Part shown: piece by piece, positions 1,243 through 49,217 of the stretch | How the letters are laid out: each line of letters starts with the position of its first letter | Position numbering within the stretch: the stretch's first letter is position 1 | Source: Tidjanibacter sp. | GTDB lineage: Bacteria; Bacteroidota; Bacteroidia; Bacteroidales; Rikenellaceae | DNA: 64,000 nt | Direction: 5' to 3' | NCBI GenBank assembly: GCA_045614965.1 | Contig: JAZLDY010000029.1 | Location: 14,814-78,813, forward strand | The notes under the pieces: generated by a model | Told to the model about the DNA's origin: nothing | The model's database searches: none | The model's input: only the letters and a program-made list of their open reading frames with translations | Position numbers and translations under genes: made by a program

Positions 1243-1257
1243 TGGCACGGAGTTTGC
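1243..1257 (+). promoter_or_regulatory. sigma54 (-24/-12) promoter
   Basis: TGGCACG-GAGT-TTGC is a perfect match to TGGCACG-N4-TTGC. Confidence 0.7.
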
Positions 1258-1268
1258 GACAATGTAGG

Positions 1269-1362
1269 GCGTAGTTGAATACTACAAGGTTTCTTCATTT
1301 ATTTAAGTTTGGGTTAGTAGTTTTGAAAAGGTAGCCGTTGTGATAACGCCTACCTTTTTTTT
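1269..1362 (+). ncRNA. Candidate sRNA A (about 95 nt)
   Basis: Lies between the sigma54 box and an intrinsic terminator (AAAAGGTAG...CTACCTTTTTTTT, 1326-1362); no ORF; contains GGTTAGTAGTTTT. Confidence 0.55.
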
Positions 1363-1380
1363 GTTTTGGTTGAGTGATTT

Positions 1381-1494
1381 TGGGAGTGTAGGGAGTGTAG
1401 GGAGTGTAGGGAGTGTAGGGAAGAGTCCTTAATGCCCTTAACTTCTCTAACCTCCCTAACCTCCCTAACTTCTCTAAATTCCCTAAATTCCCTT
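1381..1494. repeat. 9-mer tandem array with inverted arms, (AGGGAGTGT)n then (CTCCCTAAC)-like
   Basis: Directly visible; five GGG runs at 1382-1420; the C-rich arm overlaps the stop of the four-helix gene. Confidence 0.9.
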
Positions 1495-2040
1495 GATTCC
1501 CCTATTCTGCACCCTCATTCTATACATACGCTCCTTGAATCCACCCTCATTCACAAAGCGGCTAGATAGTGATTTGAGTAGCTGATGTAAGAGATAATCC
1601 TCTTGTTTGATGAGAATGATTGCCATATTTGCCACCGTGTCGAGAGGGCGTGATTTTGCGATAGTCAGAATGTGGGCATTGTTTCCTTCAATGCCAAGTT
1701 TGCGCATCGCTACATACTCTTTCGATGTTGCTTCCCATTGCGCATAGCCATTGACACGCAAGAAATCCTCATAGTCAGATAGTAGCTCTTGAAAACTTGC
1801 TTTGGCAACATTCAGCAATTTAATGCCCATTTCGAGTGAGGTTTCAATGTCGGCATTACCCTCTACAATGTTTTGTTTTCCAGAGCGAGCAGCTTGCACC
1901 ATTTGGTCAATCGTACGATTGCCTTTTTCGAAGGCGGCGTGTGCAAAGTGATATGTTATATCAAAAAGCAGTTCAGCTTTACGATAACATATTAAATTGT
2001 GATGGTCGCCTTGACGTTTGATTAACTCGTTGGTGTTCAT
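1483..2040 (-). CDS. Four-helix-bundle protein (23S rRNA IVP/Avd-like) with suffix domain
   Basis: NLICYRKAELLFD, RTIDQMVQAARSGKQNIVEG, LLNVAKASFQELLSDYEDFL, FVNEGGFKERM; low GC; start placed at MNTNEL. Confidence 0.85.
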   Translation of the reverse strand: MNTNELIKRQGDHHNLICYRKAELLFDITYHFAHAAFEKGNRTIDQMVQAARSGKQNIVEGNADIETSLEMGIKLLNVAKASFQELLSDYEDFLRVNGYAQWEATSKEYVAMRKLGIEGNNAHILTIAKSRPLDTVANMAIILIKQEDYLLHQLLKSLSSRFVNEGGFKERMYRMRVQNRGIKGI

Positions 2041-17160: not shown

Positions 17161-17263
17161 TTTTTTTGAAAGGTAGGTTAATAAAGTAATAAAATGCAGT
17201 TTCGGTTATGTCCTATTTTCCCCAGGACTCACGGAGGGTGTAACACACCCACCTAATTCACAA

Positions 17264-44982: not shown

Positions 44983-46029
44983 CTATTTCACCACCTCAAC
45001 GGTGGTGCCGTTTTTGATTTTGGATAGGGCGGTGATGGCAACCTCTTCGCCCTCGGCTACGCCCGAGAGAATCTCCACCTGTTGGCCCACCTGGCGACCG
45101 AGGGTTACAACCCTACGCTCGGCAACACCGTCCTTGATGACATAGACGTAGCGGTCGTTCACACCCATCTGCTTCTGCACAGCCACGTCGGGCACCACAA
45201 GGCTCTTGCGGTTACCCATATTAAATTCCGTGCGGGCAAACATACCGGGGCGCAAAATCTCCTTGGCATTGGGTACAAGTACCTCCACATTGAAGGTGTG
45301 GGTGGTGGCGTTGATGGCGGGATAGACAATGTTCACCTCGCCCTCAAACTCCCTATCGGGATAGACCTCGGCCAAAACCTTAACCTTCATACCTTTATAT
45401 ACTTGTGGGTAGTACTGCTCCGAGAGGGCCACGATTGCTTTGAGGCGGTTGATTTGCATCACCTGCAACACACCCACGCCACCATCGGCATTACCGCCCA
45501 TAGTGAACAAGTCGCCCGGCTCGTTGTAGCGGCCCGTGATGACACCATCGATGGGCGAACGAAGTTCGATGTTGCGCTCCAAGTTGGCGATGTTCTCCTC
45601 CATAACCGACACAGAGGTCTCCAACTCGTCAATCTGCGAACGGCTCACGCCACCTGCCTCATACACGCTACGCATACGAGCGAGGTTCTGTTTGGCATTT
45701 TTGAGTTGTGCGGCGGTCTGGTTGTATTGGTTCCTATCGAGGGTGGCCACAAGTTGTCCCTCCTTGACGTGGTCGCCCACGTCAACCCTAATCTCGTCGA
45801 TACGGAGGGCCATTTGGGGAGTGATGAAGGTCTTTTTGTAGGGCAGCAGGGTGGTCGTGAAGTCAACCGTTTGTGCCACCTCCACATTCTCCACGGGTGC
45901 AACCTTTGTCAGTACAGCGGTCTGCTGGGTGAGTACAGCCTCAACACTACTCTTTGTCTTGTTGCCCACGCAACCAGCAAGGGCGAGGGTGGCCACTGCG
46001 GCCACTGCAATCAAAATACTACGTTTCAT
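44983..46029 (-). CDS. RND periplasmic adaptor subunit
   Basis: Lipobox LAGC; VDVGDHVKEGQLVA, SPIDGVI, LRPGMF. Confidence 0.95.
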   Translation of the reverse strand: MKRSILIAVAAVATLALAGCVGNKTKSSVEAVLTQQTAVLTKVAPVENVEVAQTVDFTTTLLPYKKTFITPQMALRIDEIRVDVGDHVKEGQLVATLDRNQYNQTAAQLKNAKQNLARMRSVYEAGGVSRSQIDELETSVSVMEENIANLERNIELRSPIDGVITGRYNEPGDLFTMGGNADGGVGVLQVMQINRLKAIVALSEQYYPQVYKGMKVKVLAEVYPDREFEGEVNIVYPAINATTHTFNVEVLVPNAKEILRPGMFARTEFNMGNRKSLVVPDVAVQKQMGVNDRYVYVIKDGVAERRVVTLGRQVGQQVEILSGVAEGEEVAITALSKIKNGTTVEVVK

Positions 46030-46124: not shown

Positions 46125-46241
46125 AGCACCCCCTCTAACTTAGAGGGGGACCTTCTTATTCTCGGGTATCTTTTTTAATACCCGAAATAAAAATGCGCCG
46201 CAGGCACCTTAATTTTCCATTTTCAATTTTCAATTTTCAAA
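46125..46241. repeat. Intergenic mosaic (REP-like hairpin, 22-bp palindrome, GCGC linker, heptamers)
   Basis: Same modules as 51640-51850. Confidence 0.88.
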
Positions 46242-47600
46242 CCCTTTGCCGATGATTTTCTCATAGTCGGCCCTGGCGGCCAAAAAGTCATAGATGGCTT
46301 GCGAGTAGTTCAGACGTGCCTGCGTGAGCGACAACTCCGAGGAGTTGAGTTCGAGGATGGTGCCCGTGCCGGCGTTGTAGCGCACCTGGGCAATCTCGTA
46401 GGCTTTGGCTGCCTGACGTACCGTAATCTCGTTGCTGGTCATCTTCTCCTTGGCTGTCAGGATGTTGTTGAAGGCACTCTCCACCTGCACATTCACGCTC
46501 TGGGCAAGGTAGTCCCTTTGGAGCGAGAGTTGGTGAAGGGTGTTGCGAATCTCGTGTGCTTTGTTGAGGTTGCGACCACCCGAAAAGAGGGGGATGCTGA
46601 TGGATATGCCCGCCGAAAGGGGCTTCTGCCACCACCACTCCTTCTTGGTTGTGGGCGCAGAGGAGCCTCCACCCATACCGCCCATACTTCCACCGATAAT
46701 CTCGCCAAAGTTCATCGAGTTGTCGTTACCGGAGTACATAAAGGTAGAGAAGGCTGCAATGGTCGGCAGGCGGCTTGCGTTGGTCATTCGGAGCTGGTGT
46801 TCCAGCAGTTTGCGCTGAAATTCCAACGAGCGCAGGTCGGTATTGTTGGACAAGTCCACACTGTCGGTGGGGATGATTGCCAGGGCCACCTCCTCGGCAA
46901 AGTCGTCCAGGGTGCCCTCCAAAACAAAGTCGCTCTGGGCAGGCAGGCCGAGATACATCTTAAAGAGGAGCTTTGTGGCCTTGATTGAGTTCTCCGTTTG
47001 CACAATGTTGGGCCTCAGGTTGCTCAACTGCACCTGTGCCGACAGAAGGTCATACTCGCTGGCAAGGCCCTGCTGGTACATCTTCTCGGTGTTGGCCACC
47101 GTCTCGGCAATGGACTTCTCGCTCTCCTTCAAAACCGAACGCGACTGCTCGGCCAGCAGAATGTTGTAATATCCTTTTTTGACCTCGTTGGTGAGATTGA
47201 TTTTCGACGAACGTGCACTCTCAACCGCCTGCTCCATCTGTGTACGATTCATTTTGAGCGTCTCATAGACGGTGGGGGCATAGAGTGGTAGGGAGAGTGA
47301 GGCGGTGTTGTTGATGGTGTTGTCGGCACCAAACGAAAGGCCTTTGGCCATCTCCTGCTTAACGATGCTGTATGAGTATTGACTCTGTACCGACACGTTG
47401 GGCAGCAGGCTGCCGATGGTCTGCTTGCGCACCCAATCCTGACGCTCAATCTCCAAGCCCGACACCACAATCGTAGGGTTGTCGCTCAGAGCTATTTCGA
47501 GAGCTTTGTCGAGAGTGAGAGTGAGTGTTTGTGCTCCTGCGAGCCCCACGGATAGGCCCACCAGCGAAATGCACAATGTGAAAAATCTCTTCATAATCAT
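46230..47600 (-). CDS. TolC family outer-membrane channel
   Basis: ALEIALSDNP, YNAGTGTILEL and helical repeats. Confidence 0.93.
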   Translation of the reverse strand: MIMKRFFTLCISLVGLSVGLAGAQTLTLTLDKALEIALSDNPTIVVSGLEIERQDWVRKQTIGSLLPNVSVQSQYSYSIVKQEMAKGLSFGADNTINNTASLSLPLYAPTVYETLKMNRTQMEQAVESARSSKINLTNEVKKGYYNILLAEQSRSVLKESEKSIAETVANTEKMYQQGLASEYDLLSAQVQLSNLRPNIVQTENSIKATKLLFKMYLGLPAQSDFVLEGTLDDFAEEVALAIIPTDSVDLSNNTDLRSLEFQRKLLEHQLRMTNASRLPTIAAFSTFMYSGNDNSMNFGEIIGGSMGGMGGGSSAPTTKKEWWWQKPLSAGISISIPLFSGGRNLNKAHEIRNTLHQLSLQRDYLAQSVNVQVESAFNNILTAKEKMTSNEITVRQAAKAYEIAQVRYNAGTGTILELNSSELSLTQARLNYSQAIYDFLAARADYEKIIGKGFEN

Positions 47601-47769
47601 TATCTATATATGTTCTATTTTTCTTATTCTTATAACCTATTTATTGCCAGCAATGTAGCTCATCGTAGGAAAGGTGGCGCAAAGGTAGTCAGAAAACTCA
47701 AAAACCACAACGTTTTTTTCTCTCTTCTTATTGCGTGTCAATGTTGATTTGTACCTCAAAAAAGTGTAC

Positions 47770-47885
47770 AAAAAAAGGTTACGTTTAATTGAAACGCAAC
47801 CTTTTTTCCCAAACAGGGGATAGAATCACTTCTTGCCCTGTTTCTACTAACCTAAAACTACTAACCTAAATGAACCTTAAAACTT
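47770..47885 (-). ncRNA. Candidate sRNA B (about 115 nt)
   Basis: -7 box TATCTTTG (47891-47898); two TAGGTTAGTAG copies; hairpin 47811-47843; terminator 47770-47801; no ORF. Confidence 0.65.
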
Positions 47886-48044
47886 CGCTGCAAAGATAAG
47901 GGCATTTTGTGCAATTTTCCAAATATATTAAAATTTTTTAATAATAATTTAACATTGGAAACAGTGTTAATTTATGCAGACAAGGGGTTATTGCGTTGGT
48001 TTTCAACACAATAGGTTGGTTTTGAAATAAAACAACGATTTTTG

Positions 48045-49082
48045 TTACCTGAGAAGTTTAAGTAACCTTGCAAGCACCATTTCGGGCGATATGCGGGTCA
48101 TACACTCATAGTGTCCAAAGAGGCAGGCCCTACGTCCGTCGGCCGAGCAAGGGCGACACGGAAGCTCCACTTGCACCGCATAAGTGGGGTTTTGTCCATA
48201 GCCGCAAGACTCTATGAATGGGTGAGTTGCGCCCCAGATTGATACCGCCGGAGTGCCCACCAACGAGGCCAAACTCAACACCGGATGGTCAACCGTAACC
48301 ACTGCATCGAGTGTCGAAATGAGGTCCATTTGCTCGCTCAGCGAGGCTCTCTCGGCCACGGACACCACCGATGGGAAAAGAGTCTCCATTCCCTCACAAA
48401 ATTGTTTTTGATAGGTGCCACTTCCAAAAACGAACACTTTTTCGTAGCGTGCAGCGAGTTGCTTTATCAATTCGGCAGATTGGTCTATGGGGTAACAATT
48501 CCCTTTGCGGTGCGACAGCAGGGCAACACCTATCCATCGGCCACTCTTCTCGCCTGCCAGAATGGAGGCAATGTGTGGGGGCTCGCCTGTGCGCTTACGG
48601 CGCACGGGGGCAGGCATACTGAATGGTAGGCCGAGTCGCTCAAATACATCTCGTGAGCGTTGCGACAGGGGAGAGAGTTGCACCATCACCTTGCGGAATT
48701 TGCGGGTGAGGAGTTTGCGCTCAATCTTGCCACGCTCTATTGTGGAGGTTAGCCTGCGCCACGGAGTGGGGCAGAAACGTAGCCTGCGACTGCGTGGGGA
48801 GGCTTCAAGGTCGGCAACTCCGTCAACCCTAAGCCTTTGGATGTCGCCCCAGAGTTTCAGCCCTCCCAACACGCCCCTGTATTTGGCATCGTCGGCCAGC
48901 AGAAATTCCAACCCCGACACACCTCTGAACAGAGGTAGGAGTGCAGAGGAGGTCAGCACGGTGAGTTTGATGTTGGGGTAATCACGCTTCAATCCTCGCA
49001 GGGCGTGCACACACATTGCCGCCTTTGCCACGTCGGTAAGGCGGACAACAAGGATGTGTTCTATGGGCCTCTGTTTTTTCAT
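48045..49082 (-). CDS. Glycosyltransferase family 9 (heptosyltransferase-like)
   Basis: ILVVRLTDV, LASLVGTPAVSIWGAT, CRPCS...C...C. Confidence 0.85.
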   Translation of the reverse strand: MKKQRPIEHILVVRLTDVAKAAMCVHALRGLKRDYPNIKLTVLTSSALLPLFRGVSGLEFLLADDAKYRGVLGGLKLWGDIQRLRVDGVADLEASPRSRRLRFCPTPWRRLTSTIERGKIERKLLTRKFRKVMVQLSPLSQRSRDVFERLGLPFSMPAPVRRKRTGEPPHIASILAGEKSGRWIGVALLSHRKGNCYPIDQSAELIKQLAARYEKVFVFGSGTYQKQFCEGMETLFPSVVSVAERASLSEQMDLISTLDAVVTVDHPVLSLASLVGTPAVSIWGATHPFIESCGYGQNPTYAVQVELPCRPCSADGRRACLFGHYECMTRISPEMVLARLLKLLR

Positions 49083-49217
49083 CGTTGCGTGAGTGGTGAT
49101 TGTGGCTACAAAGGTAGGAATTTTATGCGGACAACCACCCACTCAGCGACCAAAAAATAAAAGTGCGGCCCTCATCCAAAGGCCACACTTTCACTTTATC
49201 ACCAATTCTTTCAATAC

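Follow-up and report, generated by a model that had tools for sequence, protein, structure and literature searches.

A Rikenellaceae-wide family of predicted small RNAs with one seed under housekeeping and sigma-54 promoters and candidate targets in SusC-like transporter leaders

In Bacteroides thetaiotaomicron, the small RNA (sRNA) family FopS comprises 14 paralogues of ~65-70 nt with sigma-ABfr promoters, and its invariant 5' seed was shown experimentally to block the translation of susC mRNA (PMC11697453). FopS is bound over a 55-nt 5' region by RbpB, a protein with an RNA recognition motif (RRM) (PMC11697453, supplement). A further sRNA, GibS, shares part of the FopS seed but has a different promoter (PMC11697453, PMC7366714). 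Here, a stretch of 64,000 nucleotides from a Tidjanibacter genome (Rikenellaceae) was analyzed, which is termed the window (positions 14814-78813 of contig C29); all coordinates are window positions unless a contig is named. The genome (G000) has 1.92 Mb in 66 contigs, 51.8% G+C and a completeness of 99.8%. The window contains a unit at 47898-47770, named B1, which very probably is a real small regulatory RNA gene, as judged from its layout and conservation. We consider it rather probable that B1 belongs to a lineage-specific family of trans-acting sRNAs of the FopS/GibS kind, in which one seed is placed under two sigma factors and would be directed against transporter leaders.

The original prediction had described a -7 box, a tandem repeat, a hairpin and a terminator with no open reading frame (ORF) for B1, all of which are present. 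The unit consists of the following features:

47920-47923, minus strand: TTTG of the B1 promoter, similar to a -33 element, 21 nt 5' of the -7 box (read directly).
47891-47898, minus strand: -7 box TATCTTTG, matching the Bacteroidota housekeeping-sigma consensus TAnnTTTG (read directly).
47770-47886, minus strand: predicted B1 sRNA of 117 nt, its 5' end placed according to the promoter and its 3' end according to the U-tract.
47844-47886, minus strand: invariant, mostly unstructured 5' region of 43-44 nt (alignment of 26 sequences).
47870-47878, minus strand: box AAGGTTCAT, which has the same form in unit A (AAGGTT..CAT) and in FopS (UUUAAGGUU).
47858-47868, minus strand: seed copy 1, TAGGTTAGTAG (tandem repeat).
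47844-47854, minus strand: seed copy 2, TAGGTTAGTAG (tandem repeat).
47812-47842, minus strand: hairpin 1, AACAGGG / CCCUGUU with the loop UUAGAAGUGAUUCUAUC (fold and covariation).
47770-47805, minus strand: Rho-independent terminator with a 14-bp stem and a tail of seven U (fold and covariation).

Four bases lie between the -7 box and the RNA start, followed by GAAGUUUUAAGGUUCAUU-UAGGUUAGUAG-UUU-UAGGUUAGUAG (47886-47844, minus strand); the open 5' region holds a AAGGUUCAU box and the two tandem UAGGUUAGUAG seeds. The predicted RNA folds with -33.1 kcal/mol (z = -4.5 compared to dinucleotide shuffles). A small ORF was ruled out, since the RNA strand of B1 contains no ATG-initiated ORF and has stop codons in all frames; on the opposite strand, only chance TTG frames of ≤ 30 aa overlap the unit. 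The terminator was missed by a generic sigma-70 promoter and terminator scanner, which we regard as a limitation of this program, unsuited to Bacteroidota promoters; folding and covariation support the terminator.

Selection appears to act at the RNA level. Across 26 distinct B1 sequences, the alignment shows no difference in its first 44 columns, and the sequence downstream varies while its pairs are kept. In the terminator, compensatory changes were found in 8 of 14 pairs, and 99.2% of the cells are paired compared to 91.2% in shuffles; in hairpin 1, such changes occur in 2 of 7 pairs with 100% of the cells paired. The covariation score of B1 is 0.293 versus 0.133 in shuffles, and none of 500 shuffles reached the observed values. 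When the 3' partners were slid along the alignment as a control, pairing fell to 36-61%. Type A terminators contain six pairs with compensatory changes, and the 5' hairpin of type A covaries by eye (GUAGU/ACUAC to GUGGU/ACCAC). An invariant single-stranded 5' end combined with freely covarying stems is the classic signature of a base-pairing sRNA.

Two side observations concern the variation of B1. One homologue (loci L029 / L086) carries three tandem UAGGUUAGUAGUUU seed repeats instead of two. The loop UUAGAAGUGAUUCUAUC of hairpin 1 (47818-47836, minus strand) is nearly invariant between species, which suggests a second functional site, i.e., a protein contact or a kissing loop.

B1 shares its seed with two further units of the genome. 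The exact 13-nt match 46 kb away and the upstream AAGGTT..CAT form in both units, on which the original prediction was built, were both found, and the paralogous family proposed from them gained a third copy, B2, on another contig. The units are:

1243-1362, plus strand: paralogue A unit with the seed GGUUAGUAGUUUU and a sigma-54 promoter.
1243-1257, plus strand: sigma-54 -24/-12 promoter TGGCACGGAGTTTGC of paralogue A, a GG-N10-GC element (read directly).
1269-1362, plus strand: predicted paralogue A sRNA of ~94 nt (fold).
1312-1324, plus strand: shared 13-mer GGTTAGTAGTTTT in paralogue A (exact match).
C16:16493-16600 of the same genome: paralogue B2, found by scanning the genome for the 13-mer.

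The predicted A RNA consists of a 5' hairpin (1271-1285), an open core (1287-1326) and the terminator (1326-1362), all on the plus strand, and has the seed motif in a single copy. The 13-mer GGTTAGTAGTTTT occurs twice in the window (1312-1324, plus strand, and 47854-47866, minus strand) versus 0.03 copies expected, a count found in none of 100 shuffles. The 9-mer GGTTAGTAG has three copies in the window versus 0.25 expected. Regarding the comparison of seed frequency with the background, the nine genomic copies of the 9-mer are no excess over the ~15 expected from length alone; its copies in promoter-terminator units (A, B1 and B2) number four, and every one of the three genomic 13-mers lies in such a unit. 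The proposed genome scan for the seed between a promoter and a terminator thus gave a small, clean family. B2 has the same -7 box as B1, and the first ~45 nt are alike, but the terminator differs.

The U-tract of B2 directly abuts the 5' end of a tRNA-Leu(GAG) gene (C16:16493-16686), and such a juxtaposition of sRNA and tRNA recurs in many relatives (gcccaggtggtggaattggtagacac). From this arrangement, co-transcription followed by RNase P processing is possible.

The seed is found under two kinds of promoters. TAnnTTTG is the established housekeeping promoter of Bacteroidota. A -7 box of this form is present in all 83 distinct upstream regions of B units, ending 12-14 nt before AGGTTCAT / AGGUUCAU, and 74 of the 83 also have the upstream TTTG resembling a -33 element. 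Of 39 distinct type A loci from across the family, 37 have GGCA(C/U)-N5-UUG(N) upstream of the core, compared to 0.9% of random 130-nt windows. Paralogue A of G000 has a perfect TGGCAC-N5-TTGC site, and the intergenic regions of this genome contain just two others. Furthermore, the genome encodes rpoN (C49) and two bona fide Sigma54_activat proteins, i.e., bacterial enhancer-binding proteins (bEBPs; C7 and C17). Because of the -7 box of type B, the sigma-54 box of type A and the encoded rpoN and bEBPs, there is good sequence-level support for the original idea of a single seed controlled by two sigma factors.

The other two perfect intergenic TGGCAC-N5-TTGC sites (C3:50725, minus strand, and C30:37389, plus strand) are candidate members of what may be a very small sigma-54 regulon.

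To determine the distribution of the family, 185,579 species genomes were scanned with an exact pattern. This yielded 78 loci, all in Tidjanibacter or in metagenome-assembled genomes of Rikenellaceae (a few labelled Alistipes sp.), which originate from human, chicken, ruminant and mouse guts. Of 37 genomes of the genus, 36 gave BLAST hits to B1, mostly one full-length copy and one matching the 5' 60 nt only. Unit A is present in 45 of 47 genomes of the genus, often with a second seed-plus-terminator unit ~200 bp downstream. At the level of the family, 124 of the 201 Rikenellaceae genomes, representing 19 of 31 genera, contain the motif TRGGTTAGTAGTTTTR, with 1-6 copies per genome and essentially none for the reversed pattern used as a control. 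Among ~396 genomes from ~139 other Bacteroidales families, four contain the motif, which is not above the control. Both types are intact at loci from ten other genera; across genera, the invariant core of type A is (A/G)AGGUUUCUUCAUUUAUUUAAGUUUGGGUUAGUAGUUUU and the consensus of type B is GAAGUUUUAAGGUUCAUUU(U)AGGUUAGUAGUUUUAGGUU.

The search for a known family in Rfam, suggested with the original prediction, did not identify one: for the window and the loci of six other genomes, Rfam 15 including the Bacteroides BTnc models gave chance matches only (E ≥ 0.02, far below gathering scores), with gathering as well as with permissive thresholds. Since the family is missing from Rfam, its loci are currently unannotated in hundreds of genomes. 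In full-text literature searches, neither this seed nor sRNAs from Alistipes or Rikenellaceae turned up, and a 2026 review on the sRNAs of gut commensals has no mention of Rikenellaceae or of sRNAs dependent on sigma-54.

Several observations were made in the vicinity of unit A. Many Tidjanibacter species have the second seed unit mentioned above, A2, ~200 bp 3' of A (loci L032, L035, L036, L038-L043 and L047-L058), which is absent from G000. Its parts are a covarying hairpin (GUGUGGCGACC..GGUCGCCACA), a linker rich in pyrimidines, GUUUGGGUUAGUAGUUUUG and a terminator. Because A2 has no recognisable promoter, it may be made by read-through or processing. In the relatives L032-L058, again not in G000, a near-perfect reverse complement of the A core of 20-24 nt (CAAACTTAAATAAATGAAGAAAC) follows ~15-25 nt after the A terminator. 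It resembles a translation start region, yet the ORF is not conserved: a small ORF at this position was rejected, as both its start (ATG is ACG in one species) and its length (8 to at least 42 codons) vary. Possible explanations for the reverse complement are a target or decoy encoded in cis, an RNase III site within read-through RNA or one half of an old inverted duplication.

In addition, inverted arrays of tandem 8-9-nt repeats, e.g., (GGGAGTGTA)4 ... (CCCTAAC/TTCTCTAAC)n, with the potential for very long hairpins occur in intergenic regions (window 1377-1500; C16:16770-16880, C44:~8190 and C29:~11860 of this genome; L042 and L036). They usually lie just past terminators, including those after unit A and after the tRNA adjoining B2. 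Weak Rfam matches to microRNAs at these arrays (mir-2278, E = 3e-4) were discarded as artefacts of the array hairpin.

For the search for targets, genes encoding a Plug domain were considered (TonB-dependent, mostly SusC-sized, referred to as TonB-dependent receptors, TBDRs), of which G000 has 19. The motif A(C/U)UAACC, which is the complement of GGUUAGU with one G:U pair allowed, was found in the 60-nt leaders of 7 of 18 TBDR genes compared to 26 of 1567 other genes (Fisher 2.4e-8), and its reverse complement, used as a control, is not enriched in TBDR leaders. In the genome of another genus (G177; 58% G+C, 660 kb used), AACCU(U)AA or A(C/U)UAACC occurs in 13 of 37 TBDR leaders compared to 10 of 341 others (5e-9; AT-matched 4e-7). 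A motif-free test compared the mean duplex energy of the sRNA 5' regions with TBDR leaders and with AT-matched other leaders, and was repeated with 100 shuffled sRNAs:

G000, B 5' region: energy difference -3.06 kcal/mol; Mann-Whitney p 8e-4; 2 of 100 shuffles as low.
G000, A 5' region: energy difference -2.59 kcal/mol; Mann-Whitney p 1e-3; 0 of 100 shuffles as low.
G177, B 5' region: energy difference -4.16 kcal/mol; Mann-Whitney p 2e-6; 0 of 100 shuffles as low.
G177, A 5' region: energy difference -2.92 kcal/mol; Mann-Whitney p 3e-7; 0 of 100 shuffles as low.

A profile of 7-mer complements along the sRNAs placed the signal on the shared GGUUAGU/AGGUUAG seed. The complement of GGUUAGU is present in 56% of the TBDR leaders of G000 versus 14% of the others (6.5e-5), and in G177 the complements of UUUAGGU, UUAGGUU and AGGUUAG are present in 24-38% versus 8.5-16% (p 1e-3 to 6e-3). 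The same profile gave no enrichment of complements to the CAU-containing part of the sRNAs in TBDR leaders. For this reason, an 'anti-start' function, in which the CAU of AAGGUU(UCUU)CAU would pair with AUG, was dropped from the main reading and survives as part of a rival explanation; its complements are generic MKK starts. Within the window, one candidate site was noted:

17172-17184, minus strand: putative target site UUAUUAACCUACC, 14-24 nt ahead of the ATG (17160-17158) of a SusC-like gene, within its leader.

As a candidate target, this leader ranks 45 of 1588 leaders. It is conserved in the closest relative only, hence footprinting was uninformative.

Taken together, B1 would be an independent gene for a trans-acting sRNA of ~117 nt, transcribed from its housekeeping promoter to the Rho-independent terminator. 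In vivo, the GGUUAG-centred seed would pair with an (A/C)UUAACC or AACCU(U)AA box in A/U-rich leaders, 15-40 nt upstream of the start codon of mRNAs for TonB-dependent, SusC-like transporters. This pairing would repress these genes by blocking translation initiation, as for FopS in Bacteroides thetaiotaomicron. With the same seed produced from sigma-A and sigma-54 promoters, two signals could converge on the same transporter genes. The statistical support for SusC-like and other TBDR leaders as a target class is good and does not extend to naming individual targets.

A number of points weigh against SusC-like leaders as targets. The enriched leader motif differs between G000 and G177, and the exact motif of one genome is only weakly reproduced in the other. 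Moreover, the motif was refined after inspection of the data, and the gene starts used for the leader tests were obtained with a crude ORF caller. SusC leaders are in part paralogues of one another, so the Fisher tests assume more independence than exists. In the duplex ranking of translation initiation regions (TIRs), no single TIR beats the best matches of shuffled seeds, which precludes naming individual targets. TIRs contain hardly any perfect complements of GGUUAGUA; consequently, pairing would rest on 7-11 bp including G:U pairs. Finally, the invariant stretch of 43 nt far exceeds a simple seed, which may indicate a further interaction, with a protein or in a long duplex. A search of G000 for perfect and nearly perfect complements, both of the seed and of the entire 5' region, recovered nothing but the units' own antisense strands.

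A rival explanation, which we consider rather unlikely, is a genuine trans-acting sRNA family with main targets other than SusC-like leaders, the long invariant 5' region pairing with something else. Candidates would be the starts of exported-protein mRNAs, by CAU 'anti-start' boxes or by UAGUAGUUUU complementing AAAACUACU (Lys-Leu-Leu codons), or a single highly conserved RNA. The 43 invariant nucleotides reach far beyond the 7-nt peak of the complementarity profile, 33 TIRs contain AUGAAGAA, the complement of UUCUUCAU in A, 15 TIRs contain AAAACUAC, to which GUAGUUUU is complementary, and many Tidjanibacter species have the perfect complement of 20-24 nt just 3' of A. However, the CAU part is not enriched in TBDR leaders and its matches are the generic starts described above, no extended complement exists elsewhere in G000, and a specific statistical signal was obtained solely for the shared seed with TBDR leaders. 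The long invariance would also suit a sponge RNA which titrates a protein in the manner of CsrB/RsmZ, with the tandem UAGGUUAGUAG repeats as sites for an RNA-binding protein. The repeat number of two to three and the binding of FopS by RbpB over a 55-nt 5' region (PMC11697453, supplement) fit such a function. It is nevertheless improbable: the sRNAs are widespread, yet G000 lacks an RRM_1 protein of the RbpB type and just 23 of the 81 Rikenellaceae genomes examined encode one; in paralogue A, the motif occurs once; and the signal of complementarity to TBDR leaders is seen specifically with the real sequence.

The remaining explanations concern the position of the units. B1 is located between a gene for a family-9 glycosyltransferase (GT9; 48045-49142, minus strand) and a TolC-type OEP/HlyD operon, which has its own -7 box as originally predicted:

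46230-47600 and 44983-46029, minus strand: genes of the TolC-type OEP / HlyD operon.
47680-47687, minus strand: separate -7 box TACCTTTG of this operon, ~85 nt beyond B1 (read directly).

The GT9-B1-TolC arrangement is conserved in relatives, with B1 always between the two and on the same strand. Thus, B1 might be a cis-acting leader or attenuator of the efflux operon, the synteny reflecting this role. This is very improbable given the strong terminator with its seven-U tract, the separate promoter of the operon and the absence of an aptamer-like structure, the conserved part being unstructured. Furthermore, the same 5' region is found in B2 upstream of a tRNA and in B2-type copies elsewhere, beside a tRNA or in intergenic tandem pairs; these other contexts make a cis role for the shared 5' region unlikely. 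Unit A is divergent from a PepSY-like gene. Least credible of all, with almost no probability left, is a DNA-level repeat lacking a functional RNA, for example an array of protein-binding sites or a mobile-element remnant. The A core of relatives lies within a 23-bp inverted repeat flanking seed and terminator, and repeat-rich intergenic DNA is nearby. In contrast, compensatory changes keep the RNA stems, the orientation to promoter and terminator is fixed at all loci, the loci are syntenic and not mobile, and there are only 2-6 copies per genome. We retain the trans-acting sRNA family with transporter leaders as targets as the preferred explanation.

The relationship to FopS was examined with several methods. 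According to published probe and guide sequences and 12 loci from other Bacteroidales, the FopS RNA reads GUGUUUUUCAUAGUAUUAGAUUUAAGGUUAACAAAGGUUGG followed by a terminator. The FopS 5' consensus or R1' seed (..GUAUUAGAUUUAAGGUUAACAAAGGUUGG..) has no match with ≤ 1 mismatch in G000 and four other Tidjanibacter genomes, the only Rikenellaceae listed. An nhmmer search with a profile of 12 FopS sequences did not match A, B1 or B2, and local alignments of FopS with the units were not significant compared to shuffles (p 0.01-0.17). RRM_1 (PF00076, RbpB-type) was not found in G000, with B. thetaiotaomicron as a positive control; among Rikenellaceae, such proteins are patchy, occurring in 1 of 11 sampled Tidjanibacter genomes. 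Hence, homology to FopS was not established by pattern, profile hidden Markov model (HMM) or shuffled local alignment, and the caution of the original prediction on this point was justified. Because the pattern, HMM, alignment and Rfam searches were negative and G000 has no RRM_1 protein, the A/B family is not filed as a member, although it would work like FopS/GibS. Either deep homology or convergence on a common leader box may underlie the resemblance.

Two further observations on FopS were made. Of 401 Bacteroidales genomes sampled, 24 carry its 5' consensus (≤ 1 mismatch); they belong to 15 genera and about a dozen families, with 5-6 copies per genome in one family and 1-2 in others (loci L160-L171); therefore, the range of the FopS type may be broader than the Bacteroidaceae range given in the FopS paper. 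The terminator loop CGUGAGA is common to several FopS copies and several type A terminators.

A more far-reaching proposal is that A, B1 and B2, as GGUU-box sRNAs, and FopS/GibS are diverged branches of one ancient Bacteroidales superfamily which reads a common 'AACC box' in SusC-like leaders. The superfamily would be RbpB-free in Rikenellaceae, and one branch would have come to depend on sigma-54 and an enhancer-binding protein; a nutrient or envelope signal detected by this bEBP would then shut down transporter translation globally. We offer this as speculation that is more doubtful than the family itself.

A looser parallel is known from enterobacteria, where the sigma-E-dependent sRNAs RybB, MicA and MicL have a conserved 5' seed and together repress the mRNAs of outer-membrane proteins. 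They resemble paralogue A in being driven by an alternative sigma factor, as predicted for A, and in having a conserved seed. This is an analogy only, as they differ in phylum, sigma factor (sigma-54 with a bEBP here) and chaperone context (no Hfq).

Much closer are the sRNAs of Bacteroides. Like FopS, the family consists of multicopy paralogues with a TAnnTTTG promoter (type B only, as A has sigma-54), and of short RNAs in which a single-stranded, invariant 5' seed region precedes one or more terminator hairpins. In both, a U-rich stretch is followed by CAU, and the UUUAAGGUU box is followed by a second AGGUU five nucleotides later. Pairing at or upstream of the start codon of SusC-like genes is experimentally shown for FopS and predicted here. 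B1 differs from FopS by its length of 117 nt, an additional conserved hairpin and the tandem UAGGUUAGUAG seed, and the copy number is 12-15 per Bacteroides genome for FopS compared to 3 in G000. GibS resembles the family in its long unstructured 5' seed, which targets translation initiation regions, and the relation of A to B resembles that of GibS to FopS, i.e., a seed common to a multicopy family under a different, non-canonical promoter (PMC7366714). This promoter is of the PM2 -10/-30 type in GibS (PMC7366714) and of the sigma-54 -24/-12 type in paralogue A; GibS has ~145 nt and no Rfam or sequence match to the units described here.

These comparisons support a new, Rikenellaceae-wide sRNA family of a known functional kind, with an unusual, apparently sigma-54-driven paralogue and no RbpB partner. 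The absence of RbpB means that the chaperone or antagonist layer is different in this family. If our interpretation is correct, paralogue A is a sigma-54-dependent sRNA in Bacteroidota, which would tie the signal of an enhancer-binding protein to the expression of transporters, and the family supplies concrete seed/leader pairs for testing. To date, Bacteroides with its FopS sRNAs is the only group in which multicopy sRNAs have been shown to control polysaccharide utilization loci and TonB-dependent transporters post-transcriptionally. Another such family without detectable homology, with the same architecture and predicted target class, in Alistipes, Tidjanibacter and relatives would make this control a general principle among abundant gut Bacteroidales.

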